Below, in pieces: positions 1-63,124 of a DNA stretch of 64,000 bases (the stretch's first letter is position 1; every line of letters starts with the position of its first letter). The notes under the pieces were generated by a model, which saw nothing but the letters and a program-made list of their open reading frames with translations, was not told the DNA's origin and did no database searches. Location: sequence record OP778609; one strand, given 5' to 3'. The DNA is from Escherichia phage A73. The translations under genes and the position numbers were made by a program.

Positions 1-350
1 ATTACGCTGATCTGGTTACTCTGAATGCAGATTCTAAAATCAACCTGTCAAACGTGGAAGCGGTGCACGTCCTGGCCCGCCGCTGGTTCCAAAAGTTATA
101 TGGTAATACTTATTTCTCTTTAAGTGTAGATGTGGAGATCGCTGGTAAATTGGTAGAAGTAGTTAACGTCCCGTTTAAATATGGTTATGGTGATCATTTC
201 GATACCGTGGCACTGGAAGAATTTAGCAAGGTTATCAACATGGAAGGAAAAGAGTTTTCAGAGTATAGTTACCTTTCCCGTTTTTGCCGTGACAATAACA
301 TCCCTGTTTATTCGAACGCTGTTGATGTTAAACGCAAAAAAGATATGTAA
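1..350 (+). CDS. hypothetical protein, 5'-truncated at window edge
   Basis: Reading frame open from position 3 to stop at 348-350; no upstream stop in window, so the true start lies outside. Confidence 0.45.
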   Translation, partial: YADLVTLNADSKINLSNVEAVHVLARRWFQKLYGNTYFSLSVDVEIAGKLVEVVNVPFKYGYGDHFDTVALEEFSKVINMEGKEFSEYSYLSRFCRDNNIPVYSNAVDVKRKKDM

Positions 351-437
351 TTATTATTGACAGTACATAGAAAACAAGTAAACTGTATTACATAGAAAGC
401 GGGAACACTTCCCGCTTATATTCCAGGAGTAAGAGAA

Positions 438-689
438 ATGATCGAACAAATCAAAACTACGACGGCTAATGTAACGGGTACAGTATCGCACTTCATTAGT
501 GATGAATCACGGGGCGTTCCTTATTGTGCAGTACATATAAACAAAAATGGCGACTACTGGTTAACGGCGTATGGATCTTATTCTTTCGGACGTAGTGCAC
601 ACCAAAAGATCCTAGATAAAGTACAGCCAACGGGTAAAAATATTACCGCTGAGATGTTTAATAAATCACTTGCAAAGTTAAAAGCGTAA
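438..689 (+). CDS. hypothetical protein (83 aa)
   Basis: ATG preceded by AGGAG RBS; upstream hairpin 398-418; downstream hairpin 703-725. Confidence 0.55.
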   Translation: MIEQIKTTTANVTGTVSHFISDESRGVPYCAVHINKNGDYWLTAYGSYSFGRSAHQKILDKVQPTGKNITAEMFNKSLAKLKA

Positions 690-750
690 AGTATAATACA
701 TCACATCAGGCGGGGAGTGTTTCCCCGCCACAAAACGAAAGGCCAACAAA

Positions 751-921
751 ATGAAAGCAAGCATGATGGTAGCGACTGTAAACATTATCATTGGTAACGG
801 AACTGGACACCACGAAATCATAAAAAACAAGGCTTACTCTATTAGCTCCCTCAAAAACGACATGCGTTTATCTTTGGGCCAAATCCGCGCTTACTTTCGT
901 GAAGGCTATCAGAAAAAGTAG
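751..921 (+). CDS. hypothetical small protein (56 aa)
   Basis: ATG at 751 after AAAGG; below the 60-aa track cutoff; fills the gap between flanking genes. Confidence 0.3.
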   Translation: MKASMMVATVNIIIGNGTGHHEIIKNKAYSISSLKNDMRLSLGQIRAYFREGYQKK

Positions 922-932
922 CAAATTAATAG

Positions 933-961
933 TTGACGCAAAGGTCATTTTAATTTAATCT
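933..961 (+). promoter_or_regulatory. sigma70-like promoter (TTGACG-17-TAATCT)
   Basis: -35 at 933-938 and -10 at 956-961 upstream of the ORF at 990. Confidence 0.45.
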
Positions 962-989
962 ATAACAAATCGACAAATGAGGCATAATC

Positions 990-1292
990 ATGTTTACCAA
1001 AGCAAATGAGTATTTCTTTTTAGATTTACTTGATGAAAGTATCTTTGTAGCTATGGGCAAAAAGTCAATGGTCTTTAAACGCAAAAAAGATAATGGTGAA
1101 TTTGAAGATAGCGAAGCCGTGCTAACAGTCAAGGAAGGTAAAGAACCTGCAACGTCTGTTTTAATCTACACCTTGACCAACGGCGGTGAAGTTATCGCAT
1201 CAGGTAGTAGCCATCCGATCCCAAAATCGGAAGTGAACACTGTAATTATTGGTTTTGTTGCAGCTTGTTTCTACGAGGAAAAAAGCAAATGA
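990..1292 (+). CDS. hypothetical protein (100 aa)
   Basis: ATG with upstream GAGG; stop overlaps the next start (ATGA). Confidence 0.55.
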   Translation: MFTKANEYFFLDLLDESIFVAMGKKSMVFKRKKDNGEFEDSEAVLTVKEGKEPATSVLIYTLTNGGEVIASGSSHPIPKSEVNTVIIGFVAACFYEEKSK

Positions 1293-1453
1293 ATCCGCAA
1301 AATTTATCTTATGTAAACTGGCCCAATAAGGCTGAGAAGAAAGAAAACTTGAAACGTCTGGTTAACTTTTATCGTGAAGCTGGTCATAGTAAAGTAACAG
1401 CGGTTAAAATGGCAAAGCGCCACCTTAACAAGCCAAGTACTAAACTAATTTAA
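1289..1453 (+). CDS. hypothetical basic protein (54 aa)
   Basis: ATG at 1289 overlapping the upstream stop, GAGGAA RBS; lysine-rich. Confidence 0.4.
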   Translation: MNPQNLSYVNWPNKAEKKENLKRLVNFYREAGHSKVTAVKMAKRHLNKPSTKLI

Positions 1454-1461
1454 AAAACTTG

Positions 1462-1490
1462 TTGACGTTGGCTTGTGCCGTACCTATAAT
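1462..1490 (+). promoter_or_regulatory. sigma70-like promoter (TTGACG-17-TATAAT)
   Basis: Consensus -35 at 1462-1467 and perfect -10 at 1485-1490 with 17-bp spacer. Confidence 0.6.
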
Positions 1491-1525
1491 GGACGGCATA
1501 GGCAAACGAAATAGGATTTATAGAA

Positions 1526-1732
1526 ATGAAAAAGAAAATTGTATATAATATTATTAGCTTTATCGCAACTATCCTCCTGGCTATTGCTGGTCTATCTTTG
1601 ATTGTTGCAGTAGGATCTCTGTTTCCTGGGGCAATAAGTATTAGCATAGCTTTCGCCGCATTGTCTGTTTTTACAGGGTATGCAGGGATTAAAGTTACTT
1701 ACTGGTCAGAAGATTACAAATATTCAAACTAA
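1526..1732 (+). CDS. small membrane protein (68 aa, two predicted TM helices)
   Basis: Hydrophobic stretches IISFIATILLAIAGLSLIVAV and ISISIAFAALSVFTGYAGI. Confidence 0.5.
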   Translation: MKKKIVYNIISFIATILLAIAGLSLIVAVGSLFPGAISISIAFAALSVFTGYAGIKVTYWSEDYKYSN

Positions 1733-1745
1733 ATTGAGGTGTAAG

Positions 1746-1895
1746 ATGTACAAGCTATTAACCTGGGAAACAGAATCATCGTCACCGATCAGCCGGACCT
1801 TTTTTGATTTGTGCACGGCTTACAGGCTGGCAAAGGGAGGATATCATAAGGCCCAAATCATTGATGAATTTAATGTTATCCTTTATGAATTTTAA
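1746..1895 (+). CDS. hypothetical small protein (49 aa)
   Basis: ATG at 1746 after GAGGTG; the longer track ORF uses an alternative start. Confidence 0.3.
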   Translation: MYKLLTWETESSSPISRTFFDLCTAYRLAKGGYHKAQIIDEFNVILYEF

Positions 1896-1942
1896 TCAAT
1901 TCATACACTTAAAAGAAAGTTAGAAAAAGTTTTAAAAAGTGG

Positions 1943-1971
1943 TTGCAACAGGTATTGGATAGTAGTATAGT
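1943..1971 (+). promoter_or_regulatory. sigma70-like promoter (TTGCAA-17-TATAGT)
   Basis: -35 at 1943-1948, -10 at 1966-1971. Confidence 0.4.
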
Positions 1972-2122
1972 ACTTTCAACGGGGCGAGATGGCCCAAAAC
2001 GAAAAAACTTGAAAGGTGATTATCATGATGGCAATTTTCTTAGTTTCTCTTCTGGTTGCTGTATGTTCTGCCACTGCTGCCGCTGTACTTTATGACACTC
2101 GCTACAATGAGGAATAATAAAA

Positions 2123-2341
2123 ATGAATATTGTCAACATTACAGGTAAGACCGAGATCCTTAAGAATCTTGCACCAGGTGAGTCCACCGTATGGATCTGC
2201 AAAGATGGAGAAGTAGAAAAACAAATGAGATTGTTTACCGCTATTTGTTGTCGGTTAAACATGAAAGTTACACAAATCCGGTCGATGATTGTTAGTGTGG
2301 GAAACATTCCGACTGAATGCATAATTCTTACAAAGATTTAA
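2123..2341 (+). CDS. hypothetical protein (72 aa)
   Basis: ATG preceded by GAGGAA RBS. Confidence 0.5.
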   Translation: MNIVNITGKTEILKNLAPGESTVWICKDGEVEKQMRLFTAICCRLNMKVTQIRSMIVSVGNIPTECIILTKI

Positions 2342-2417
2342 AAATAGCTTTACAACAACGATAAAATCAGTACAATACAAATCAGGCAATAAAGCCGACT
2401 AAAGAAAGGTAAAGACC

Positions 2418-2657
2418 ATGCAAACTATTATCACTAAATTTCTTCCTCCTACTAATACCCGTGGCGCTCGCATCAAAGCAAAATGTTGGTTGACAGATAT
2501 CACTATCGCCTATCCGGTAGCCGAGATCAACGAAGCCCATAAACTGGCGGCAGAAGTGTTAATTACAAAATTGAAGATGACAACAGATATTGATTGGAAT
2601 ATCGTTGCAAGCGGTGAAACACCGGACGGCAGCGGCTACGCTTTCATTATCAAATAA
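2418..2657 (+). CDS. hypothetical protein (79 aa)
   Basis: ATG after AAAGG; followed by hairpin 2666-2685. Confidence 0.55.
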   Translation: MQTIITKFLPPTNTRGARIKAKCWLTDITIAYPVAEINEAHKLAAEVLITKLKMTTDIDWNIVASGETPDGSGYAFIIK

Positions 2658-2711
2658 TCATAAAGCGGCGGGAATAGTTCCCGCCTTATTAAAGAGAAAA
2701 GAGAAGATATC

Positions 2712-2990
2712 ATGACTATTACTAAATTATCCACCGAAGAGATCACCAACATTCTGACTACTAATCTTGAAGATTGGAAGCGTGAAGCTGATTTGCAAGC
2801 AACCTGTAAGCTGAATACAGAGCTAACATCAGACGATATTGAAACGATCGTCCATGCTGATTTCTATGATGCTTTGCATGATGATTCTATCATCCTTGAA
2901 ACGATGCTAGATAATGCCTGGATTAATCCCGATTTGGCGGCGTATGGTCGTAGCACCTTTATCACTATCCACAATATTTATAACCGTTAA
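2712..2990 (+). CDS. hypothetical protein (92 aa), paralog of 3662-3940
   Basis: N-terminus MTITKLSTEEI...TTNLE.WKREAD and C-terminus FITIH.IYN shared with the ORF at 3662. Confidence 0.6.
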   Translation: MTITKLSTEEITNILTTNLEDWKREADLQATCKLNTELTSDDIETIVHADFYDALHDDSIILETMLDNAWINPDLAAYGRSTFITIHNIYNR

Positions 2991-3117
2991 GAGGCGATAA
3001 ATGGTCCTGTAACAGCCTAAAACGGCGAAAGTATGCAATCACCTTACTTGACGATATTCTACGCACTGGCTTACACTGGGGCTTTTAAAAGGGCACAAAA
3101 TAATTCGAAAAAAGTAG

Positions 3118-3146
3118 TTGACGGCAATTAATAATCTGGTAAAGTG
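3118..3146 (+). promoter_or_regulatory. sigma70-like promoter (TTGACG, weak -10) with conserved leader
   Basis: -35 at 3118-3123; downstream ACGTAAGGCGGCAATAGCGCCGCC leader hairpin at 3156-3173. Confidence 0.4.
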
Positions 3147-3192
3147 TACCACGTAAGGCGGCAATAGCGCCGCCATTAAAGAGATAAACGAA

Positions 3193-3579
3193 ATGAAACA
3201 AGAAATCATCAATGAAATTATTAGCGGTTACAAAGAAGCCTTTATTTTCGCTGAATCAGCAACAGATCAGCACGGGGAGTATATCGATAACCTTGATCCT
3301 TATGACTTCTCCCAGGATGCAAACGACCGGATCGCCCAGGATGTGACAGCCTTTATCAATGCTAATGTTGCCGCTATCTCTGAAGCGATGAGCGACGGCG
3401 CTACAGCCAACCAGATCGGGAATGATTTACATTTTACCCGTAACGGTCACGGTGTAGGCTTTTGGGATCGCCCTGAAATATACACCACTAACACGGCTAA
3501 CCGTTTGAGCAATGCCGCTAAATTAATGCCTAACGTGTCAGCTTACATTGGGAAAGATAATCTGATTTATATTGAATAA
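3193..3579 (+). CDS. hypothetical protein (128 aa)
   Basis: ATG after AAAGAG; acidic protein. Confidence 0.55.
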   Translation: MKQEIINEIISGYKEAFIFAESATDQHGEYIDNLDPYDFSQDANDRIAQDVTAFINANVAAISEAMSDGATANQIGNDLHFTRNGHGVGFWDRPEIYTTNTANRLSNAAKLMPNVSAYIGKDNLIYIE

Positions 3580-3661
3580 AAAGTATTGACAAGCTGAATC
3601 AACCTGATAAGATGTATCACATAGGGGCGACAAGCGCCCCGCCTAACAGAGAGATAGAATC

Positions 3662-3940
3662 ATGACCATCGCCAAATTATCCACCGAAGAAATCGAACAA
3701 GTGTTAACTACTAACCTGGAACAATGGAAACGTGAGGCAGATATACAATCAGCAAAATGGCTTAACGAGAAGTTAACACCGGATGATCTGAGTAAGATTA
3801 TAGATCCTCAATTCTATGAAGATATTCACGACACGGCGTTATCCGTTGAGGATGTACTCGATAAGCATTACATTGCTACTGATTTGCAGGTTTACGGGCG
3901 TAAAAACTTTATTACTATTCACGACATTTACAATAACTAA
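3662..3940 (+). CDS. hypothetical protein (92 aa), paralog of 2712-2990
   Basis: About half of residues identical to the ORF at 2712 along the full length. Confidence 0.6.
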   Translation: MTIAKLSTEEIEQVLTTNLEQWKREADIQSAKWLNEKLTPDDLSKIIDPQFYEDIHDTALSVEDVLDKHYIATDLQVYGRKNFITIHDIYNN

Positions 3941-3975
3941 GGGCGGCAACGCCCTACAACTAAAAGGGTAATATT

Positions 3976-4170
3976 ATGACGTTAGCAACATGCACCGGAT
4001 CAAAAATTGCTTGCTTTGAGTTTATGGAAGACTATGAAACGACAGCTATCACCGATCAATATATCACCGTGATCACGCGTGACGGTATCGCCTGGCATGT
4101 TCCGGTTTATGATGGGGATACCTATGAAGTCACCGACAGCGGCGGCAATACAGCTATCTTTGTTGTCTAA
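3976..4170 (+). CDS. hypothetical protein (64 aa)
   Basis: ATG after AAAGGG. Confidence 0.45.
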   Translation: MTLATCTGSKIACFEFMEDYETTAITDQYITVITRDGIAWHVPVYDGDTYEVTDSGGNTAIFVV

Positions 4171-4183
4171 GGGGGGAAACACT

Positions 4184-4411
4184 ATGCACAATAACATCAT
4201 TACCGATCGTGCCGCTACTATGCGCCCTGGCGATCGGGCACGTTTACAGATCGGCGCTTATCCGTTCCCTACCTATGACTTTTGCAAAGTAACCGCTATC
4301 GAAAACAATCCCTTTGATCCTGATACCGTGATCATCTGGTACGAAGGAAAGGGAAATAAATTTGAAGACATTTTGGGGCGGGATGAGCATATCAATATTA
4401 TTCGTTACTAA
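4184..4411 (+). CDS. hypothetical protein (75 aa)
   Basis: ATG at 4184 preceded by GGGGGG; the longer track ORF 4079-4411 overlaps the previous gene. Confidence 0.5.
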   Translation: MHNNIITDRAATMRPGDRARLQIGAYPFPTYDFCKVTAIENNPFDPDTVIIWYEGKGNKFEDILGRDEHINIIRY

Positions 4412-4529
4412 TCGCCACCTAACAGCCTAAATAGTAGGAGGCAATGCAATCCCCTACTCAATGAGAATGGAGCGCCCTGGCTTATGCTGGGGCGTTCTAC
4501 GTTACAGCAAAATAATTTTAAAAATACAC

Positions 4530-4558
4530 TTGACGTTCGCCAGGTGAGCGGGTATATT
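4530..4558 (+). promoter_or_regulatory. sigma70-like promoter (TTGACG-17-TATATT) with conserved leader hairpin
   Basis: -35 at 4530-4535, -10 at 4553-4558; leader ACGTAGGGCGGCAATAGTGCCGC at 4565-4587. Confidence 0.55.
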
Positions 4559-4607
4559 TTATCACGTAGGGCGGCAATAGTGCCGCTCACTGACTGGAGC
4601 TATCATT

Positions 4608-5009
4608 ATGGCCTTTACAATCACCTCTTACACTGACGTTGCCAACATTGCTAAAACTTTCGGCCCTGAAGCCCTTAAGTATGCGGTATCCAATGGTAAA
4701 CTAACGAAAGAGCAATGTTACCTGATTGGAAGCTGTAAACGTTGGGCGGCATCTCGTAACATCGAGATTGAAAACGTAAATGATGGTAACATCGAGTATA
4801 GCGTTGATGCAGTATTCAAGGCCGTGTATTTGGGCGGTATCTACAATACCAATCTTAATGATGTTCGTATCGTTCGCACTGGTTTTGGGGCTTATGATGT
4901 TCCAGTCCGCGAAGCTATGGAAAAAGGTTATATTAATCCAGCTATTTTAAGTATGATCATGACTGAGGCCAAAGAACGTAACGAAGTACGGGCCATCCTG
5001 GGCCTGTAA
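4608..5009 (+). CDS. hypothetical protein (133 aa)
   Basis: ATG after TGGAG RBS. Confidence 0.55.
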   Translation: MAFTITSYTDVANIAKTFGPEALKYAVSNGKLTKEQCYLIGSCKRWAASRNIEIENVNDGNIEYSVDAVFKAVYLGGIYNTNLNDVRIVRTGFGAYDVPVREAMEKGYINPAILSMIMTEAKERNEVRAILGL

Positions 5010-5040
5010 TGAAATATTAATCGAAAACTATTGACACGGA

Positions 5041-5068
5041 TCGTCAATATGCTAATATTTATCACGTA
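5041..5068 (+). promoter_or_regulatory. sigma70-like promoter (TTGACA-16-TAATAT) with conserved leader hairpin
   Basis: -35 at 5041-5046; leader ACGTAGGGCGGCAATATCGCCGC at 5075-5096. Confidence 0.5.
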
Positions 5069-5113
5069 GGGCGGCAATATCGCCGCTCACCCCTTAAAAG
5101 AGCGAGATCTAAA

Positions 5114-5329
5114 ATGGCGTTAACAAAACAAGAAATCATCGACCGCATCAAAGAGTCAACTGGCGAGAATATTGGTAATGGTTTAATTGTTAAAGTTCTT
5201 GATTATTCAAATAATCCCCTGGCACCGGAACCAGTGGCTTACAAATTATCCTGGATATCCGTATTTAGTGGTAAGCGTACAAGATGCGTATACTATCCGA
5301 ACACCGTGGGGCGTCAGTACTGTAAATAA
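5114..5329 (+). CDS. hypothetical protein (71 aa)
   Basis: ATG after AAAGAG; followed by hairpin GGGGCGGCAACGCCCC at 5351-5366. Confidence 0.5.
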   Translation: MALTKQEIIDRIKESTGENIGNGLIVKVLDYSNNPLAPEPVAYKLSWISVFSGKRTRCVYYPNTVGRQYCK

Positions 5330-5389
5330 AGGGCACTTTAATATTAATAAGGGGCGGCAACGCCCCAGGTCAACCAAAGGGAAACAACA

Positions 5390-5596
5390 ATGAGTATTGC
5401 AATGATTAGCTCATCCGACATTAAAAAGGCTTTATCTGTATTGCGCTATCACCATAGAAGGAAGGTAATCAATGACGAGAGCTATCTAGATTCATCGTTA
5501 GAAAGCGATACGTTGGAAGCCATTTCAAAATTATCTGATTTGCATAAACGCATGACCGAAAGCAACCGATCCGACTTCATAGGGGGCGAAATATGA
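5390..5596 (+). CDS. hypothetical protein (68 aa), MSIAM N-terminus
   Basis: ATG after AAGGGA; shares the N-terminal pentapeptide with the next ORF. Confidence 0.5.
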   Translation: MSIAMISSSDIKKALSVLRYHHRRKVINDESYLDSSLESDTLEAISKLSDLHKRMTESNRSDFIGGEI

Positions 5597-5853
5597 GTAT
5601 TGCAATGTTAATCAATACCGTAGAAGAGGCGAAAGCATTAAAGTTACGTGTTGAACTGATTGATCAACCAGGTGGAGATCTCCTTGTACAAATCTATCCC
5701 CCAAAGGATGATTCTGGCGCTTATGATTGGTGCTACTCTGACACGTTCGAACAAGTAGACATTAAAGCAATAACATCATTTATCAACAGGGCTATACTTG
5801 AGCAAACGATAGAACTTAACGGGATGTTAAAAACACCCTGGCACATTTACTGA
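5593..5853 (+). CDS. hypothetical protein (86 aa), MSIAM N-terminus
   Basis: ATG overlapping the upstream stop; AGGGGG RBS. Confidence 0.5.
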   Translation: MSIAMLINTVEEAKALKLRVELIDQPGGDLLVQIYPPKDDSGAYDWCYSDTFEQVDIKAITSFINRAILEQTIELNGMLKTPWHIY

Positions 5854-5863
5854 GTTCGACAAA

Positions 5864-5891
5864 AGGGCTTGACTTGTTCAGCCCTTTTTTG
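5864..5891 (+). terminator. rho-independent terminator
   Basis: Stem AGGGCT/AGCCCT followed by TTTTTT. Confidence 0.6.
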
Positions 5892-6029
5892 CTATTCTTA
5901 TCAAACGGGCGGCACCTGGGAACAGGGGGAGGTAATCACTGGACGACTCCGCTATACAGTGATAGTAAATAGCTATCAATAATCTCCAAAAATAAAATAA
6001 AACCTATCGAGTCTTTACAATTCTTTCTG

Positions 6030-6058
6030 TTGACACAACAACCGCATTACAGTATTAT
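6030..6058 (+). promoter_or_regulatory. sigma70-like promoter (TTGACA-17-TATTAT)
   Basis: -35 at 6030-6035, -10 at 6053-6058, then CTCGTAGGGC leader motif. Confidence 0.55.
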
Positions 6059-6061
6059 TTA

Positions 6062-6330
6062 TCTCGTAGGGCAGCGAAGCAGTGATGTAAAGTAGTTACT
6101 CTATGATGTAAGTTCTGAGAAGTCGAATCCGATAAAGTATCAGAAAGTTTCTAAGTTTTCGAATCGTCCAGATGAAAAAGGCTGGCAAGTGTTGAGAAAG
6201 GGCACGTTGAGTAAGTCCTGAACAGGGGCGCTCCTAGACACCTTCTACTGAGATTGCGATCGAAGTGTTAAACTGTGAGAAACAAAAGAGCGCTAGGAAA
6301 GAAAGAAACAAGAAAAGAAGTTAAAAAGAT
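6062..6330 (+). ncRNA. candidate untranslated transcript / sRNA
   Basis: About 270 nt downstream of a strong promoter with no ORF longer than 7 codons; the next promoter (6333) serves the gene at 6407. Confidence 0.2.
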
Positions 6331-6332
6331 TG

Positions 6333-6362
6333 TTGACACAAAAGTAAGTTGTATACTATTAT
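6333..6362 (+). promoter_or_regulatory. sigma70-like promoter (TTGACA-18-TATTAT)
   Basis: -35 at 6333-6338; CTCGTAGGGC leader follows. Confidence 0.45.
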
Positions 6363-6406
6363 ATCTCTCGTAGGGCAAACATTCAAAACATCAAAAAGGG
6401 TACAAA

Positions 6407-6682
6407 ATGTTACAACTTAACGCTAAATTAGACAAAGAAATCACTGAATTTTGGGATATGGTAGTAGCTACTGATGTGGACGGTGTAGCAAGTCCTTACC
6501 TCAATAACATCGAGTATCACAATGTTGCCGCTATCAATGCAGAACACAAAGAGAAAGGCGGTGCTGATAAATTTGCTAAAAGCAATGGCTTCACTGATGC
6601 TAATCACATGATGCAATCAGTATTGTGGCAAGCTCAAGAAGATTTCGAAGAAAAAACTCTTGAATTTGCCAGACGCTCATAA
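6407..6682 (+). CDS. hypothetical protein (91 aa)
   Basis: ATG after AAAGGG; followed by hairpin GGGCCGAAAGGCCC at 6697-6710. Confidence 0.55.
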   Translation: MLQLNAKLDKEITEFWDMVVATDVDGVASPYLNNIEYHNVAAINAEHKEKGGADKFAKSNGFTDANHMMQSVLWQAQEDFEEKTLEFARRS

Positions 6683-6737
6683 TAGAATAATCAAACGGGC
6701 CGAAAGGCCCACTAACTGACCTAACAGGATTAACATC

Positions 6738-7007
6738 ATGAATCGCATCGACCAGCTTAAAGTAGTTCAGCATATGGCTTACCGTATCCTTGAAGTTCAG
6801 AAAGGGAGCAAAAAAGAAGTATGTGAGAAGGCTTATAAGGTATTCAGCCACAAAGCTGATGATTGGAAGTTGCAGAAAGTCAAAAAGGCCGATATCCTGG
6901 GCTACCTTGAGGATGAGATCCGCCTTGCGGAGCAAAAACAGATTCGTCGTGATGAGGCAGAACATAACCAGGCCTGGCAGGAGTGGTTTAAAGGGTATAC
7001 TAAGTAA
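6738..7007 (+). CDS. hypothetical protein (89 aa)
   Basis: ATG after ACAGGA; Lys/Glu-rich helical protein. Confidence 0.55.
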   Translation: MNRIDQLKVVQHMAYRILEVQKGSKKEVCEKAYKVFSHKADDWKLQKVKKADILGYLEDEIRLAEQKQIRRDEAEHNQAWQEWFKGYTK

Positions 7008-7016
7008 TATCGAAAA

Positions 7017-7040
7017 CGGGGGGTTATATGCCCCCTTTGT
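7017..7040 (+). terminator. rho-independent terminator
   Basis: GGGGGG/CCCCC hairpin followed by a T-run. Confidence 0.55.
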
Positions 7041-7070
7041 AAATATTCCATTAATTTACAATTCCCTCTA

Positions 7071-7100
7071 TTGACAAGAAAGTCAATTTTGCAGTATAGT
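7071..7100 (+). promoter_or_regulatory. sigma70-like promoter (TTGACA-18-TATAGT)
   Basis: -35 at 7071-7076, -10 at 7095-7100. Confidence 0.5.
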
Positions 7101-7140
7101 TATATCTCTAGCAGCAAACAACAAAACAAAGGACAACGAC

Positions 7141-7560
7141 ATGAACATCAAATCAACTAATCCGGCTTACTCTTTCGATAACGCTTTTTGTCACGGTAGT
7201 GCCGCCAAAGGTTTTGAAATTGATGGTAAACTGGTTATCGTCAATGTTGATGGGGAAGAGGTTGCAGTTTATCCAGTGGCAGACGTTAAAAGCCGTTTAC
7301 AATGCCGCATGGATGTTAACGAATACCGCCTTGATCCGGTTCGTGTCGTTGCCCTGGTACTGGAAGAAGAAATTAAAGCAATGCAGCACAGCAACAAATT
7401 TATCGGCGATGCACAGGACAACATGAAAGTAAGCCGCCACAAAGTTAATGAAGCACTGAAAGATTTTGGCTTTAAAGATCTAGTTATCAAACGTGATGAA
7501 AAATTTCGCTTTCGTAATGATCTGGCAAATCGCTACTATGAAATCTATGAAGCACTTTAA
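7141..7560 (+). CDS. hypothetical protein (139 aa)
   Basis: ATG after AAAGGA; longest ORF in this block. Confidence 0.6.
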   Translation: MNIKSTNPAYSFDNAFCHGSAAKGFEIDGKLVIVNVDGEEVAVYPVADVKSRLQCRMDVNEYRLDPVRVVALVLEEEIKAMQHSNKFIGDAQDNMKVSRHKVNEALKDFGFKDLVIKRDEKFRFRNDLANRYYEIYEAL

Positions 7561-7575
7561 GAGGTAAGACAACAA

Positions 7576-7598
7576 GGGGCCGCAATAGCGGCCTTTTC
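7576..7598 (+). terminator. rho-independent terminator (GGCCGC-AATA-GCGGCC + TTTT)
   Basis: Hairpin with the GCAATAG loop shared by the leader hairpins, followed by a T-run. Confidence 0.6.
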
Positions 7599-7600
7599 TA

Positions 7601-7629
7601 TTGACACCTGCTAATCATTCCTTTAATAT
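7601..7629 (+). promoter_or_regulatory. sigma70-like promoter (TTGACA-17-TAATAT)
   Basis: -35 at 7601-7606, -10 at 7624-7629; CCTTGTAGGGC leader. Confidence 0.55.
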
Positions 7630-7680
7630 GTACCTTGTAGGGCAAGCAATAACGCAAGCCCATAAATAGGACAAACTATC

Positions 7681-7878
7681 ATGACCATCGCTAATGAACT
7701 GATCGCTGTATTGAATGAAGCCAAATCTAATCAGATCGATGTACAGATCAAAGAATTGCCCAATGGCCTGATCGGTTGCACTTGCACCTGCTTCGGAAGT
7801 GACTACACAGAGGTAAGCTCTCTAGAATCTCTCATTCGTCACTTGAAATCAATAGTTGAAGATTGGAGAATCATCTAA
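7681..7878 (+). CDS. hypothetical protein (65 aa)
   Basis: ATG after TAGGA; followed by hairpin GGGCCGCAATAGTGGCCC at 7887-7904. Confidence 0.5.
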   Translation: MTIANELIAVLNEAKSNQIDVQIKELPNGLIGCTCTCFGSDYTEVSSLESLIRHLKSIVEDWRII

Positions 7879-8494
7879 TCAACCAGGGGCCGCAATAGTG
7901 GCCCTTGTCATATCCATCGGCGTGACTCTCCCAACTCTATTAATCCCTTCCCCATTTGGATCATCATAACTTACCTCATCTAATCATTAATCTAATCCCC
8001 TTTGGAATCTCTCCCCCACAAATCTAAACTAATCTGATAGCTTACCATAACATAATCCACAAAGAAAGAACTATTTTGCCCACAATGAAAGGCAGTTTTA
8101 AAGAGATACCATTGCCAGAGTATGGAGGTGGCGCGACCGTAGGGAGCGACACTATAAAACGAGTATACCCCTCCTACCGCTATGCGGTCATCGGTGATAA
8201 CCGATATCGTTACACGCTATCTGTTCTCTTCGTTTCCTCGTTTTATAGTGTCTATATGTAGTAATCTTTTATTCTTTGTCAATACATTATCGAAGATAAT
8301 ATTGAATTATTTAATGCTTTGTTATTCATATAAAGTGAATAGCTAGTCAATAGGAAGGCCGTTAGTGTGACCACACAAAGAGGCTATGCACCACAAAGAG
8401 AGGCCGTACTTGCCCACAAAAGGAGCAAACAAGCAAGGCGGTACGCCAGTTTGCTAATGAGCGTAGCTCTTTTGCTAGACAAAACTCTCTTCTC

Positions 8495-8653
8495 TCTTCT
8501 TTCCCAAAATAAATTTTTTCTTGCTTTTATTGCCAGAGTATGGCGGGGGGAATGTTGAAAAAATAGATCTTGACTGGTCAACATACGATACATCCTATCT
8601 TCTTTCCCAAAATAAATTTTTTCTTGCTTTTATTGCCAGAGTATGGCGGGGGC
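8495..8653. repeat. two copies of a ~55-bp direct repeat
   Basis: TCTTCTTTCCCAAAATAAATTTTTTCTTGCTTTTATTGCCAGAGTATGGCGGGGG at 8495-8550 and again at 8598-8653; partial third copy of TTGCCAGAGTATGG near 8113. Confidence 0.85.
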
Positions 8654-19777: not shown

Positions 19778-20017
19778 TTAGTCTCCTGATTTTGTTAAGT
19801 TTTCTTTTATTTTTACGTATTCAATTAAAGAGTTTGCAAGTTCACCATCGATTTTCTCACAAACCATTAGTATCTCTCTTACCTTTTCGGGATGAACAGA
19901 CTCATAAAAGTTCCAATCCTCTGTTCTTCCTTCTGGAGTTTTAGAAGTGAAGTATTCTTCTCTGTCTTGCTCCGGTAAGAGATAATATACAAGATTCAGC
20001 CTTTTATCGTCAAGCAC
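19778..20017 (-). CDS. hypothetical protein (79 aa), paralog of 19320-19616
   Basis: EYFTSKTPEGRTEDWNFYESVHPEK aligns with RYFTSGESYEGRLEDWNLFAALFPER. Confidence 0.5.
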   Translation of the reverse strand: MLDDKRLNLVYYLLPEQDREEYFTSKTPEGRTEDWNFYESVHPEKVREILMVCEKIDGELANSLIEYVKIKENLTKSGD

Positions 20018-20026
20018 TTTATCACC

Positions 20027-20401
20027 TTATTCGTAAAAAAGTTTATCCGCTTGCTCATTCAACCAACCCTGGCGAAAAGCCCCCTTGAGTACCTCTGCCC
20101 ACTTCGGATTTGCTGCCTCTAAGAGAAGAATTTCTTCTTTCTCTATGTTCATAGGATCAGCAAAGAAATCCAAAATCTGTTCATTAAATATACCCTCTAT
20201 CAAGATCCCTTTATATTTCAACGTCAAACGTTTTGTCATAAAACCTTGAGATAACAAAGCCTCCTCCACATCGAGTTTCGTAGTTGGAGGGTTTGGAAAA
20301 GGAAAGCCCGTCATAGGTGTTGGCGATGCACCTGTCTTCACAAAGGTATTCCCTCCAGTATTATTGAAGAAACCTTTCGCATTTTTATCATAAAGCGACA
20401 T
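20027..20401 (-). CDS. hypothetical protein (124 aa)
   Basis: ORF. Confidence 0.5.
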   Translation of the reverse strand: MSLYDKNAKGFFNNTGGNTFVKTGASPTPMTGFPFPNPPTTKLDVEEALLSQGFMTKRLTLKYKGILIEGIFNEQILDFFADPMNIEKEEILLLEAANPKWAEVLKGAFRQGWLNEQADKLFYE

Positions 20402-37611: not shown

Positions 37612-37638
37612 ATAAAAAACCGCCCCAAAGGGCGGTTA
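37612..37638 (-). terminator. rho-independent terminator (AACCGCCC-TTTG-GGGCGGTT + U-run)
   Basis: Member of the recurring CCGCCC hairpin family. Confidence 0.65.
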
Positions 37639-43657: not shown

Positions 43658-43683
43658 TAAAAAACCGCCCCGAAGGGCGGTTA
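43658..43683 (-). terminator. rho-independent terminator (AACCGCCCTTCGGGGCGGTT + U-run)
   Basis: Recurring hairpin family. Confidence 0.65.
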
Positions 43684-51942: not shown

Positions 51943-51968
51943 GAAAAACCGCCCCGAAGGGCGGCTTA
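51943..51968 (-). terminator. rho-independent terminator (AAGCCGCCCTTCGGGGCGGTT + U-run)
   Basis: Recurring hairpin family. Confidence 0.65.
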
Positions 51969-61313: not shown

Positions 61314-61396
61314 GCGCGGGTGTATCTCAACGGTCTTCTAAACCGTCGTTAATCGAGTAATTGGAGTATGAAGGTTCGAGTCCTTCCTCCCGCGCT
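61314..61396 (+). tRNA. atypical tRNA-like element (possible tRNA pseudogene or unusual tRNA)
   Basis: Canonical T-arm GAAGG-TTCGAGT-CCTTC and acceptor-like pairing GCGGGTG/CTCCCGC with one mismatch; hairpin ACGGT-CTTCTAA-ACCGT could be an anticodon arm (TCT), but there is no room for a normal D-arm. Confidence 0.3.
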
Positions 61397-61413
61397 AAGT
61401 TCTTTTGAATATA

Positions 61414-61488
61414 GGCCCTGTAGCTGGACGGTTCAAGCAAGCGACTCATAATCGCCAGACGGTGGTTCGATTCCACCCAGGGCCACCA
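61414..61488 (+). tRNA. tRNA-Met/Ile2 (anticodon CAT)
   Basis: Acceptor GGCCCTG/CAGGGCC, T-arm GGTGG-TTCGATT-CCACC, anticodon loop CTCATAA, encoded CCA; 75 nt. Confidence 0.8.
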
Positions 61489-61677
61489 TACAAAGTCGGG
61501 TAGCTCCCGATAAGTCGTCGGACTGATGTTCCCTGACTATGAGTTCTCTCAACGATAACGACGTAGATCACAGCAGAAACGGCGCACCCTATTATATTTC
61601 TTAATACATTTCAATAAGTTCTTGACATAATCCTATTATACTGCTAATATAGATATATCGACTGAATTGAGGTGTTT

Positions 61678-62052
61678 ATGGCTAAAGCTGAAATCGTTAC
61701 TCGAAAACGCGGTCGGCCTACTACAGAGGAAAGCATTGCAATCAATACTGAGAGAGCAATTCTTCATGCTCGTTCCGAGTTTGCAAGACTTACTCCTCAA
61801 GCAATTAAAACTCTGGAAGGTCTACTGACTTCCGGTACAGAGAAAGTTAAAGAAACTACTGCGAAGTATATTCTTGAGCAAGCTGAAAAGGCAAACAATC
61901 TGTACACAATGGAAGATAATGAAGAGGATCTGGCAGGAGGAACTACTTCTGCAAATTCAGAAACTCATCAAGGCCCTTCTGATGCATTTAAAGATGCTAT
62001 CCCATTAACTACTCAGATTCGTGAGTATAAAATGGCAGAAGGTGAAGATTAA
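61678..62052 (+). CDS. hypothetical protein with AT-hook-like RKRGRPT motif (124 aa)
   Basis: Own promoter TTGACA-17-TAATAT at 61622-61650; GAGGTG RBS; terminator 62051-62073. Confidence 0.55.
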   Translation: MAKAEIVTRKRGRPTTEESIAINTERAILHARSEFARLTPQAIKTLEGLLTSGTEKVKETTAKYILEQAEKANNLYTMEDNEEDLAGGTTSANSETHQGPSDAFKDAIPLTTQIREYKMAEGED

Positions 62053-62073
62053 GGCTCGCAAGGGCCTTTATTA
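62051..62073 (+). terminator. rho-independent terminator
   Basis: AAGGC-TCGCAAGG-GCCTT followed by a T-rich run. Confidence 0.55.
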
Positions 62074-62297
62074 AGAAGTTTTCTTTAAGGTAGTTCTTAC
62101 TTTAGCAGAGTAAATCTTCGGCAAGTGGCGGTAACCACTTTACCGATACCTCATAGTCAGTGCTGCAAACACTGGCTACCTTAAAGAGAATTTAACTCGT
62201 CGAATAAGGAAGATGCTGATCTCAAAGTGAGGTCACTTACCGCAAGGGGTGTGCATAGACTCCCGCTTCCGAATAGACTATGTGGCGAGATGTATTT

Positions 62298-62379
62298 GGG
62301 GACGTGGCAGAGCGGTCGAATGCGCCTGACTGTAAATCAGGTATCCCACACGGTGGTTCGAATCCATCCGGCCCCACCA
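62298..62379 (+). tRNA. tRNA-Tyr (anticodon GTA)
   Basis: Anticodon arm CCTGA-CTGTAAA-TCAGG, 3-bp D-stem, T-arm GGTGG-TTCGAAT-CCATC, encoded CCA; one A-G mismatch in the acceptor stem. Confidence 0.75.
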
Positions 62380-62382
62380 AAT

Positions 62383-62457
62383 TTTCCGTTAGGCTTACAG
62401 GATAAGATTCCCACAACATATCGTTGTGATACTGGTTCGAATCCAGTACGGAAACCA
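62383..62457 (+). tRNA. atypical tRNA-like element (no encoded CCA)
   Basis: Perfect 7-bp acceptor TTTCCGT/ACGGAAA and T-arm ACTGG-TTCGAAT-CCAGT; anticodon-like hairpin CACAA-CATATCG-TTGTG has non-canonical loop positions; D-arm irregular. Confidence 0.35.
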
Positions 62458-62582
62458 AATTAAGCCGTGATGTGATGTAATCACTGACCTCTTTGAAGGA
62501 TCATGGCATTTTATACAAAAACCTGAATAATTTAGGTTTTAATTCCTGGGGTTCGTAGCCCTATTACTAAGAGGACTTAACT

Positions 62583-62792
62583 ATGTTTACTATTAAAATT
62601 ATTGATATCGATGGAAATGAGACTGGTGTTTCAACAAGGCACTATAGATGGTACTCAAAAATGAATATTTTTGATCTGGAGGGTGGTGAATCTGTTTCTG
62701 TACCACCAAAAAGTCGTGCTTATGTAATGAATGACAAAGGAATAACCATCGGTAGATACACAAATACAGCGGATCAACGCGTTCTTAATTAA
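62583..62792 (+). CDS. hypothetical protein (69 aa)
   Basis: ATG with AAGAGGA RBS; sits between tRNA genes. Confidence 0.5.
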   Translation: MFTIKIIDIDGNETGVSTRHYRWYSKMNIFDLEGGESVSVPPKSRAYVMNDKGITIGRYTNTADQRVLN

Positions 62793-62793
62793 A

Positions 62794-62868
<75 letters not shown>

Positions 62869-62967
62869 AACCTCTATCCATCTGACGCGTTTATGGGGTT
62901 GACCTGATCACTCTTCTCCTAATCTCGTGTGAAGACACCATGATTGTTGGGATGGATAAACTTCTTT

Positions 62968-63042
62968 TGGGGATTAGCCAAGCGGTAAGGCATCGGATTT
63001 TGATTCCGACATTCACTGGTTCGATTCCAGTATCCCCAGCCA
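62968..63042 (+). tRNA. tRNA-Gln (anticodon TTG)
   Basis: Acceptor TGGGGAT/ATCCCCA, anticodon arm TCGGA-TTTTGAT-TCCGA, T-arm ACTGG-TTCGATT-CCAGT, encoded CCA; 75 nt. Confidence 0.85.
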
Positions 63043-63047
63043 ATTAA

Positions 63048-63124
<77 letters not shown>

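Follow-up and report, generated by a model that had tools for sequence, protein, structure and literature searches.

Recurrent GC-rich stem-loops as cassette boundaries and recombination junctions in the early-gene array of an rV5-like coliphage

Introduction

Why does one small GC-rich hairpin type recur along the early region of a bacteriophage, now ahead of a gene and now behind one, with part of the copies sharing a loop as well as a stem? The question is raised by the first 8 kb of a stretch of 64,000 nucleotides (nt) from Escherichia phage A73 (sequence record OP778609), the whole of which is called the window below. An earlier note, made from the letters of this DNA alone, had interpreted the hairpins as a specific recognition element within a modular array of promoter-gene cassettes. 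It missed the strongest signal of the locus, namely that the hairpins are the junctions at which the cassettes recombine. Here we describe these junctions, the anatomy of the cassettes and the conservation of stem and loop, and weigh the explanations for the likeness of the copies.

Results

An array of small genes punctuated by GC-rich hairpins

The window stems from an rV5-like Escherichia coli myophage. In a megablast search, positions 398-7904 matched 175 phage records, the closest of which (~94% identity) are Escherichia phages UPEC06, A5-4, A7_1 and vB_EcoM-LTH01 (LTH01), all unclassified Vequintavirinae; Phapecoctavirus and Justusliebigvirus phages matched parts of this query only, at 83-86% identity. 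Bases 1-7907 represent the downstream end of a plus-strand array, with ~22 small genes that are all annotated as 'hypothetical' in the records of the relatives, and in UPEC06 and A5-4 the array reaches at least some 6 kb further upstream than the start of the window. Within the first 8 kb, 15 promoters score at least 9/12 against the sigma-70 consensus, several of them 11/12. The array is followed by a stretch that is rich in repeats and poor in open reading frames (ORFs; ~7908-9700), a long region of minus-strand type as judged by GC skew, and a tRNA cluster.

Scanning the whole window for hairpins with at least five pairs, a minimum of five being G-C, and loops of 3-8 nt returned 32 GC-rich hairpins, 15 of which fall within the first 8 kb: 397-417, 709-729, 2667-2685, 3157-3174, 3624-3640, 3940-3955, 4468-4499, 4569-4588, 4987-5008 (within a gene), 5069-5088, 5351-5366, 6697-6710, 7018-7036, 7574-7597 and 7884-7907. 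Nine representative hairpins have folding energies of -12 to -19 kcal/mol. Rfam gave no match in positions 1-10000 at E<=1 (nor at the gathering threshold) and elsewhere in the window matched tRNAs only.

Hairpins coincide with the recombination junctions of close relatives

The array is built from cassette units whose boundary is the stem-loop: relatives differ by insertion, deletion and replacement of such units, the crossovers lie in or next to stem-loops, and the exchange reaches the unrelated jumbo phage 121Q. Comparing the window with UPEC06, A5-4, LTH01 and A7_1 by blastn yielded 13 unique homology breakpoints, nine of them no more than 10 nt from a hairpin. Positions this close to a hairpin make up 7.5% of the region (p=4e-8) and 25% of its intergenic positions (p=0.001).

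Individual events resolve the exchange to single units. From A5-4 and A7_1, gene 5114-5329 has been exactly removed, and the junction reads ...TAATATTTATCACGTAGGGCGGCAA|CGCCCCAG...; the outcome is a chimeric hairpin, GTAGGGCGGCAA|CGCCCCAG, in which the promoter and the 5' half of the 5069 hairpin are joined to the 3' half of the 5351 hairpin, with the crossover inside the GGGCGGCAA that both share. UPEC06 carries an extra gene between copies of a 28-nt direct repeat, GTAGGGCGGCAATAGTGCCGCTCACTGA, which is itself the leader hairpin (window counterpart 4565-4588), and lacks the last cassette, flanked in the window by the twin hairpins 7574 and 7884. Phage 121Q, in turn, shares segments 401-729, 3689-3941 and 5057-5330 at 77-87% identity, beginning or ending at hairpins (segment 3689-3941 stops at the 3940 hairpin), and there, too, promoter, leader, hairpin and small ORF follow one another.

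The 32-nt leader plus hairpin has 935 match places in 341 phage records, and a search of 5,426 E. coli genomes gave no match, hence no host or prophage counterpart. The first 20 nt of the leader (TTATCACGTAGGGCGGCAAT) are 100% identical in the T5-like left terminal repeat, within the pre-early promoter region upstream of the A2 operon (for example in pork29, MF431732 ~5039-5058, plus many Demerecviridae records), where they likewise follow a sigma-70 promoter; the RNA structure downstream differs. Judged from these matches, the data suggest that promoter-leader modules move between unrelated coliphage families. Since the hairpins are recombination junctions, their sequence similarity has an explanation that needs no recognition, namely concerted evolution.

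Beside the junction at 3940, we observed that the array genes 2712-2990 and 3662-3940 are paralogs of 92 amino acids, both starting MTI(T/A)KLSTEEI; gene 3662-3940 has a 121Q homolog with 87% nucleotide identity over 3689-3941.

Anatomy of the cassettes

Eleven hairpins precede a gene and end 18-27 nt before its ATG, with a Shine-Dalgarno sequence in the interval. In seven of them the stem begins 10-12 nt past a near-consensus sigma-70 -10 hexamer, at about +3 to +5 of the predicted transcript; the remaining four (2667, 3940, 5351 and 6697) come behind a stop codon, with no promoter detected, 20-27 nt before the ATG. Another four (5863, 7018, 7574 and 7884) lie behind a gene, ahead of a promoter or at the end of the array. 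The positions of hairpins, promoters and ORFs thus bear out the two contexts, 5' leader and after a stop codon, that the earlier note had distinguished, as well as its modular array of promoter-gene cassettes and its placement of hairpins directly after -10 boxes, in a conserved leader at predicted transcript 5' ends.

Transcription is predicted to start 7-8 nt after the -10 box at a conserved C-R-T, such that the transcript would open with R-U-A, followed by the stem. The leader sequence CGTAGGGC occurs four times (4565, 5065, 6065 and 6369) and its variant GTAGGGC once (7637), each starting 6-7 nt after a -10 hexamer; on the minus strand of the window, CGTAGGGC is never found. A U-tract follows only 5863-5886 (TTTT) and 7574-7597 (TTTTCT), with 7018 and 7884 being borderline. 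Among the leader and intercistronic hairpins, the 8 nt that follow contain 0-3 T, or four in the case of 2667. Most hairpins are accordingly non-canonical as terminators, in line with the earlier statement that they are not generic ones. All elements are compiled in Table 1.

Table 1. Promoters, hairpins and composite elements of the array, in window coordinates; breakpoints refer to homology with the close relatives
Position	Strand	Feature	Sequence	Context
357-384	+	sigma-70 promoter	TTGACA-16-TAAACT	
397-417	+	5' leader hairpin	AAGCGGGAA-CAC-TTCCCGCTT	20 nt before ATG 438; 121Q homology starts inside
670-697	+	sigma-70 promoter	TTGCAA-16-TATAAT	-35 box within end of preceding gene
709-729	+	5' leader hairpin	GGCGGGGAG-TGT-TTCCCCGCC	21 nt before ATG 751; 121Q homology ends inside
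1462-1498	+	promoter	TTGACG-17-TATAAT	inverted repeat 1476-1498 across -10 box
2349-2396	+	promoter	TTTACA-16-TACAAT	followed by weak 3-bp hairpin GGC-AATAAA-GCC (2385-2396)
2667-2685	+	intercistronic hairpin	GGCGGG-AATAGTT-CCCGCC	no promoter; 9 nt after stop, 26 nt before ATG 2712; A5-4 and A7_1 homology breaks at 2658
3118-3145	+	sigma-70 promoter	TTGACG-16-TAAAGT	
3157-3174	+	5' leader hairpin	GGCGGC-AATAGC-GCCGCC	18 nt before ATG 3193; breakpoints 3157, 3173
3586-3613	+	sigma-70 promoter	TTGACA-16-TAAGAT	breakpoint 3591
3624-3640	+	5' leader hairpin	GGGGCG-ACAAG-CGCCCC	identical in UPEC06, phAPEC8 and A5-4; breakpoint 3640
3940-3955	+	intercistronic GNRA hairpin	AGGGCG-GCAA-CGCCCT	abuts stop, 20 nt before ATG 3976; breakpoint 3948
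4468-4499	+	14-bp stem-loop with G.U pairs		-25 kcal/mol; upstream of promoter 4530
4530-4558	+	sigma-70 promoter	TTGACG-17-TATATT	
4565-4588	+	leader and hairpin	CGTAGGGC; GGGCGGCA-ATAG-TGCCGCTC	19 nt before ATG 4608; breakpoints 4566, 4593, 4599
5031-5058	+	sigma-70 promoter	TTGACA-16-TAATAT	
5065-5088	+	leader and hairpin	CGTAGGGC; GGGCGGC-AATATC-GCCGCTC	breakpoint 5077/5078
5351-5366	+	intercistronic GNRA hairpin	GGGGCG-GCAA-CGCCCC	23 nt before ATG 5390; breakpoint 5337-5352
5863-5898	+	composite terminator/promoter	AAGGGCT-TGACTTGTTC-AGCCCTT, then TTTT	-35 TTGACT in loop, -10 TATTCT
6030-6072	+	promoter and leader, no hairpin	TTGACA-17-TATTAT; CGTAGGGC	heads ORF-free ~270-nt transcript
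6333-6376	+	promoter and leader, no hairpin	TTGACA-18-TATTAT; CGTAGGGC	upstream of gene 6407
6697-6710	+	intercistronic GNRA hairpin	GGGCC-GAAA-GGCCC	27 nt before ATG 6738
7018-7036	+	post-gene hairpin	GGGGGGT-TATAT-GCCCCCT, then TTGT	upstream of promoter 7071-7100
7574-7597	+	terminator-like hairpin	GGGGCCGC-AATA-GCGGCC, then TTTT	promoter 7601 next; breakpoint 7593/7596
7601-7661	+	promoter, leader and internal-loop hairpin (7640-7661)	TTGACA-17-TAATAT; GTAGGGC; GGGCAAGC-AATAAC-GCAAGCCC	19 nt before ATG 7681
7884-7907	+	last array hairpin	GGGGCCGC-AATA-GTGGCCC	near-copy of 7574

Conservation of apex and stem among promoter-proximal hairpins

Six hairpins of the array carry an AAT-type loop on a GC stem (2667, 3157, 4569, 5069, 7574 and 7884), and a seventh, 7640-7661, has AATAAC over an internal loop. 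The other loops are GCAA (3940, 5351), GAAA (6697), ACAAG (3624), CAC (397), GUGUU (709) and UAUAU (7018). The earlier count of 12 or more hairpins with the form GGCGGC-AATAG-GCCGCC, or close to it, was therefore an overstatement. Three of the note's own examples have other loops (ACAAG at 3624, GCAA at 3941 and 5351), and seven of its eight coordinates were right within a few bases, the hairpin given as 5079-5096 in fact lying at 5069-5088, 10 nt off. Markov simulations predict 0.22 AAT-loop hairpins on one strand of 8 kb, where six are observed (~27x); the remaining 56 kb of the window contain none in sense orientation, and the terminator-like hairpins there have C(UUCG)G loops.

A model seeded on AAU-apex hairpins (a ~20-nt element) would find its own apex again. 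This circularity was avoided by anchoring the survey on promoters: those scoring at least 10/12 were picked, blind to the downstream sequence, from the arrays of the window, UPEC06, A5-4, phAPEC8 and 121Q (Asteriusvirus). A stem-loop of at least 5 bp follows 61 of these 102 strong promoters, mostly starting 11-13 nt past the -10 box. For the analysis of conservation, the hairpins were aligned on the centre of the apex, with an even-length subset for the counting of pairs; a MAFFT alignment had put odd and even loops out of register.

Across 44 unique hairpins, the three positions 5' of the apex centre are A (38 of 44), A (35 of 44) and T (31 of 44), followed by R, G/T and T/C. The stem below varies: the first pair under the apex is G-C in 17 and C-G in 20 hairpins, and the fourth is C-G and G-C in 18 each. 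Of the cells in the even-length subset, 86% are paired, and five of seven pairs have changed on both sides, a value reached by 0 of 500 shuffles. The stems are asymmetric between strands, with a strong purine bias of the 5' arm (G-C 180 vs C-G 59).

The AAT apex is concentrated behind promoters: among 104 unique GC hairpins of the five arrays, it caps 28 of 42 promoter-proximal ones vs 7 of 62 others (odds ratio 15.7, p=7e-9), and its inverted form ATT is found on six of the others and on no promoter-proximal hairpin. It starts 18-20 nt after the -10 hexamer with a standard deviation of 0.97, as compared to 2.7 for the start and 3.0 for the end of the stem. Leader and stem hold 0.3-1.9 bits per position, and the spacers of the same modules mostly 0.02-0.4, with one position at 0.68. 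Given these near-random spacers next to conserved leaders and stems, the modules do not represent recent duplicates. Conservation in this lineage extends from the stem to the loop. The earlier assertion to this effect holds in so far as the conservation exceeds chance and simple common descent; the same apex also recurs in phAPEC8 and in the unrelated jumbo phage 121Q. A general requirement it is not.

Other lineages have their own hairpins

In phAPEC8, GTAGGGCGGCAATGGTGCCG occurs in three identical copies, with AAUGG in place of the AAUAG of the window. Its record (JX561091 / NC_020079) annotates a 'putative promoter determined with PHIRE' at 556-575, 937-956, 1787-1806 and 3202-3221, and the PHIRE motif always stands directly after a complete sigma-70 promoter. 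These 'PHIRE promoters' are probably misannotated and, as their position suggests, represent transcribed 5' leader hairpins. No account of such leader hairpins turned up in literature searches on phAPEC8 PHIRE motifs and on transcription in rV5, PVP-SE1, phi92 and Stephanstirmvirinae; the rV5 genome paper lists terminators, reports as promoters only the sigma-70 type and a possible T4-late-like motif, and leaves leader hairpins unmentioned (PMC3606486).

Phage rV5 itself has 5' hairpins after only five of 15 strong promoters, with the loops UGU, AAC, AACAA and AAAG. Salmonella phage SSBI34 keeps the leader ACATAGGGC and has four hairpin copies with GCGAC-ACAAC-GTCGC as their core, of which two possess the complete GGGCGAC-ACAAC-GTCGCCC stem. 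Closer to the window, among the relatives of 94% identity, apex positions 4-6 drift (AATAGT, AATGTT, AATGGT, AATATC). UPEC06 positions 20256-20277 read GGGCCGC-TATT-GCGGCC vs GGGCCGC-AATA-GCGGCC at window 7574-7597, i.e. the loop is exactly inverted on a perfect-palindrome stem, as intrastrand template switching at a hairpin would be expected to produce. That each lineage has its own 'house' hairpin is a signature of concerted evolution or of a lineage-specific reader.

Further features of the array and its surroundings

The stretch 5854-6406 is free of ORFs over 550 nt, contains three strong promoters (5869, 6030 and 6333) and is conserved in UPEC06 as well as A5-4. Two non-coding transcripts, of ~130 and ~270 nt, are predicted from it; promoters 6030 and 6333 keep CGTAGGGC without a hairpin. 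Folding z-scores for 5905-6035 (-0.85) and 6066-6335 (+1.2) gave no significant sign of structured RNA in these two intervals, nor did Rfam match there. Phage 121Q has four near-identical copies of the 5863-type composite (AAAGGGATTGACTCCGGTCAGTCCCTTT GCTATTAT) near 19919, 23613, 26911 and 28835, each heading a short ORF-free transcript that contains ...CTAGCCCAC(A/T)GGGTGC...; these transcripts may constitute a family of small RNA genes.

Upstream of promoters 3118 and 4530 lies a non-coding element of ~120 nt, at 2991-3117 (degenerate) and 4412-4529 (holding the stem-loop 4468-4499), of the pattern TAACAGCCTAAA ... CTGGCTTAyrCTGGGGC ... CAAAATAATT ... TTGACG. Beyond the array, the ORF-poor stretch 7908-9700 is rich in repeats, with a 58-nt direct repeat (8492-8549 / 8595-8652), three copies of ATTGCCAGAGTATGG, two of CCACAAAGA...GCCCACAA and a 21-nt inverted repeat (8148-8168 / 8232-8252). 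It looks like the positional counterpart of the 'non-coding' box on the rV5 map and could be an origin or a packaging-related region. On the minus strand, terminator-like hairpins with C(UUCG)G loops are found at 12184-12203, 43663-43682 and 51949-51964, and one with UUUG at 37618-37637, in a style unlike that of the early array. Six tRNA genes form the plus-strand cluster at 61316-63121.

Discussion

Probable cassette linkers that may also protect messenger RNA

The closest parallel to the hairpins of this array are the promoter-early stem-loop (PeSL) cassettes of T4-like phages, in which a strong sigma-70 early promoter, together with a stem-loop, lies among ORFans in hyperplastic regions; PeSLs mediate indels and replacements, with crossovers mapped inside the stem-loop and a consensus that differs per lineage (PMC2839356, PMC4122927). 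The array shows the same combination: a near-consensus sigma-70 early promoter with a stable GC stem-loop, a Shine-Dalgarno sequence and a small ORFan, arranged as intergenic elements of ~100 bp, clustered in a plastic region, with the indel and replacement junctions of close relatives at the elements and even inside a stem-loop, and with a stem-loop consensus of its own in each lineage. The one point of departure within this comparison is the placement of the stem-loop. In PeSLs it lies upstream of the promoter, between -35 and -10 or over the -10 box, and terminates upstream transcription, whereas here most stem-loops lie 11-13 nt downstream of the -10 box and are predicted to be transcribed as 5' leaders, without a T-run; an upstream or overlapping position is seen only at 4468, 5863, 7018 and 7574. 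The hosts of the elements differ, too, being rV5-like, Phapecoctavirus-like and 121Q-like rather than T4-like phages. A further trait of PeSL cassettes is that they form excised mini-circles. From the parallels in architecture and junctions we favour, with moderate confidence, the view that the hairpins are PeSL-like cassette linkers which probably also protect and insulate the 5' end of the mRNA.

A cassette would accordingly consist of an optional terminator stem-loop, a sigma-70 promoter, the leader R-U-A-GGG, a GC stem-loop, a Shine-Dalgarno spacer of 18-27 nt and a small ORF. On the level of DNA, the 20-30 nt of common leader and hairpin would provide microhomology for recombination, and repeated exchange would keep the copies of a lineage alike, loop included, such that concerted evolution gives rise to 'house' hairpins; we infer this to be the main reason for the likeness of the copies. 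On the level of RNA, a stem-loop ~3-5 nt from the predicted 5' end would keep RppH and 5'-end-dependent RNase E away from the triphosphate end and would also insulate the ribosome-binding site. Intergenic copies may block 3' exonucleases or protect the ends that processing leaves, and those with a U-tract (5863, 7574) would terminate transcription.

A precedent for the RNA-level role exists in E. coli, where the ompA and papA leaders serve as 5'-terminal stem-loop stabilizers (Emory, Bouvet and Belasco 1992, as cited in PMC3997798), and where RppH and RNase E require single-stranded 5' termini, which accounts for the stabilizing effect of 5' structure (PMC3997798). Here, a stable hairpin would lie a few nt from the predicted 5' end, upstream of the ribosome-binding site, in a geometry that would block both enzymes; with stems that mostly begin 11-13 nt after the -10 hexamer in the promoter survey, the distance is counted from a predicted start site. 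E. coli RppH prefers at least 2-3 unpaired nt and a purine at position 2. With a U at the predicted +2 in 93% of cases and only ~3 unpaired nt before the stem, the transcripts would be poor RppH substrates. The E. coli stabilizers differ in that they work whatever their loop sequence, while the apex here is conserved. As a phage-encoded factor that might make 5' protection needful, we considered a Srd-like RNase E stimulator; gp11 is described as Srd-like in the rV5 paper (PMC3606486), but the current record gives an HNH endonuclease, and the candidate was rejected.

Several observations weigh against linkers of this kind as the full account. We infer the mRNA-stabilizing role from the predicted geometry of the 5' end, and the position at +3 to +5 is itself predicted, resting on the usual gap of 7-8 nt between -10 box and start. 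The element is not obligatory, as the strong array promoters 933, 6333 and 7071 have no hairpin at all. Mismatches in the stems comprise 12 G.U vs 13 A.C, a ratio that is uninformative on whether selection acts on the sense RNA or on the DNA. Above all, concerted evolution alone does not easily explain why the same AAU apex caps different stem families, why it is limited to promoter-proximal copies and why it keeps a set distance to the -10 box. An extra constraint on the apex is likely, and the orientation-specific AAU apex at a fixed promoter distance, so far unexplained by the reading that we favour, is directly testable.

What could constrain the apex

Such a constraint could arise if an AAU(A/G)G apex were the recognition site on early mRNA, nascent or mature, for a phage or host RNA-binding protein, which might serve in nut/boxB-like antitermination, in translational regulation or in processing. 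This is essentially the specific recognition element of the earlier note, and it gains from the apex being conserved on covarying stems, promoter-proximally enriched and never inverted there, at a fixed distance from the -10 box and next to unconstrained spacers, as well as from its presence in phAPEC8 and 121Q, both of which also share early ORFs with this phage. Yet hairpins at the identical position of the same array carry CAC, GUGUU, ACAAG and GCAA loops, rV5 and SSBI34 mostly use other hairpins and apexes, positions 4-6 of the apex vary even among relatives of 94% identity, and the loop of the UPEC06 terminator is inverted. The likeness to lambda nut, a small promoter-proximal RNA hairpin in which the loop rather than the stem sequence would be read, is also limited: boxB, a 5-bp stem under a GNRA-like pentaloop, is present once in each operon, is paired with boxA and is bound by N, whereas here stems of 6-10 bp bear AAUAG-type loops, with one hairpin per gene. 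No boxA-like partner, N-like protein or other candidate protein was identified, with no search aimed at boxA or N having been made; no Rfam family matches, and the array has few terminators for an antiterminator to override. We consider protein recognition unlikely, with the apex statistics speaking for it and the diversity of loops against.

Nor does loop stability account for the apex. C(UUCG)G hairpins, which Tuerk et al. reportedly found in 1988 to be reused in intercistronic regions of phage T4, resemble the present case in that one small fixed-loop hairpin type is used often and in several contexts of one phage genome. UUCG, however, is an exceptionally stable tetraloop and in the window is confined to late-region terminators. 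AAUAG and AAUGG are not known to be loops of unusual stability, so that their conservation must have another reason.

Alternatively, the apex could be a -10-like element (AAnnnT) on the non-template strand at about +11 to +16, causing a sigma-70-dependent promoter-proximal pause as at lambdoid late promoters, with the arms being secondary. The apex start is indeed placed more tightly relative to the -10 box than either end of the stem, and the apex is limited to promoter-proximal copies in one orientation. Recognition of a -10 element requires the key A and T of TATAAT (positions 2 and 6), and AATAGT, AATGGT, AATGAT, AATACT and AACACT all retain A2 and T6. About a quarter of the apexes, however, end in C (AATAGC, AATATC, AATGGC), and the apex also sits on the terminators 7574 and 7884 and on the promoterless 2667, far from start sites. 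Pausing would need no flanking inverted repeat, yet the stems covary, and this phage group is not known to have a Q-like antiterminator. A sigma-dependent pause is thus, in our view, very unlikely.

The junctions themselves would be compatible with a more active process, in which the hairpins are the sites of a recombination or nicking enzyme that mobilizes cassettes in the manner of integron attC sites or homing endonucleases, beyond passive microhomology. Breakpoints concentrated in hairpins, the crossover exactly in the shared GGGCGGCAA core, the hairpin-to-hairpin cassettes in common with an unrelated phage family and the inverted UPEC06 loop are all in keeping with this, and the authors of the PeSL work left open a role for a dedicated recombinase (PMC2839356). 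Like attC sites, the hairpins are imperfect inverted repeats that bound single-gene cassettes and mark their gain and loss. attC sites, however, span 55-140 bp, IntI recombines them in the form of folded single strands, and the cassettes between them are mostly promoterless, whereas the cassettes here carry their own promoters; beside the array, no integrase or recombinase was recognized, and the ORFs are annotated only as hypothetical. Homologous recombination between repeats of 20-30 nt in a recombination-proficient lytic phage explains the junctions equally well, and an enzyme acting on cassettes would give no reason to expect an apex biased towards promoter-proximal copies; we give this idea little credence.

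Hardly worth entertaining, finally, is that the hairpins are ordinary rho-independent terminators, or phage-specific promoters as labelled by PHIRE for GTAGGGCGGCAATGGTGCCG in phAPEC8: the T-runs after 5863-5886 and 7574-7597 would fit the former, but most copies have only 0-3 T in the next 8 nt and lie between a promoter and the gene it serves, and against the latter stand the complete sigma-70 promoter always right in front of the motif, the promoter types reported for rV5 (PMC3606486) and the fact that no phage RNA polymerase turned up for the group, although no search was aimed at one.

Were the AAU(A/G)G leader hairpin nevertheless read specifically, it could be bound by a factor that controls the early mRNAs as a class, or be the recombination site of a dedicated enzyme in a phage 'cassette system' that moves promoter-bearing genes between rV5-like, Phapecoctavirus and 121Q jumbo phages and the T5 pre-early leader. 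We regard this outcome as doubtful.

Implications

As PeSL-like cassette linkers, the hairpins would extend the idea of modular shuffling via conserved regulatory cassettes beyond T4-like phages to rV5-like, Phapecoctavirus-like and 121Q-like coliphages, and would show cassette exchange between unrelated phage families via a common leader hairpin. They would account for the early-region mosaics of tiny genes with no assigned role in these therapy-relevant phages and supply a concrete rule for locating cassette boundaries and, with them, candidates for anti-host or anti-defence functions. The 'PHIRE promoters' of phAPEC8 would be corrected to 5' leaders in the databases. A strong promoter combined with a 5' hairpin, moreover, would represent a compact, natural and reusable part for expression and insulation.

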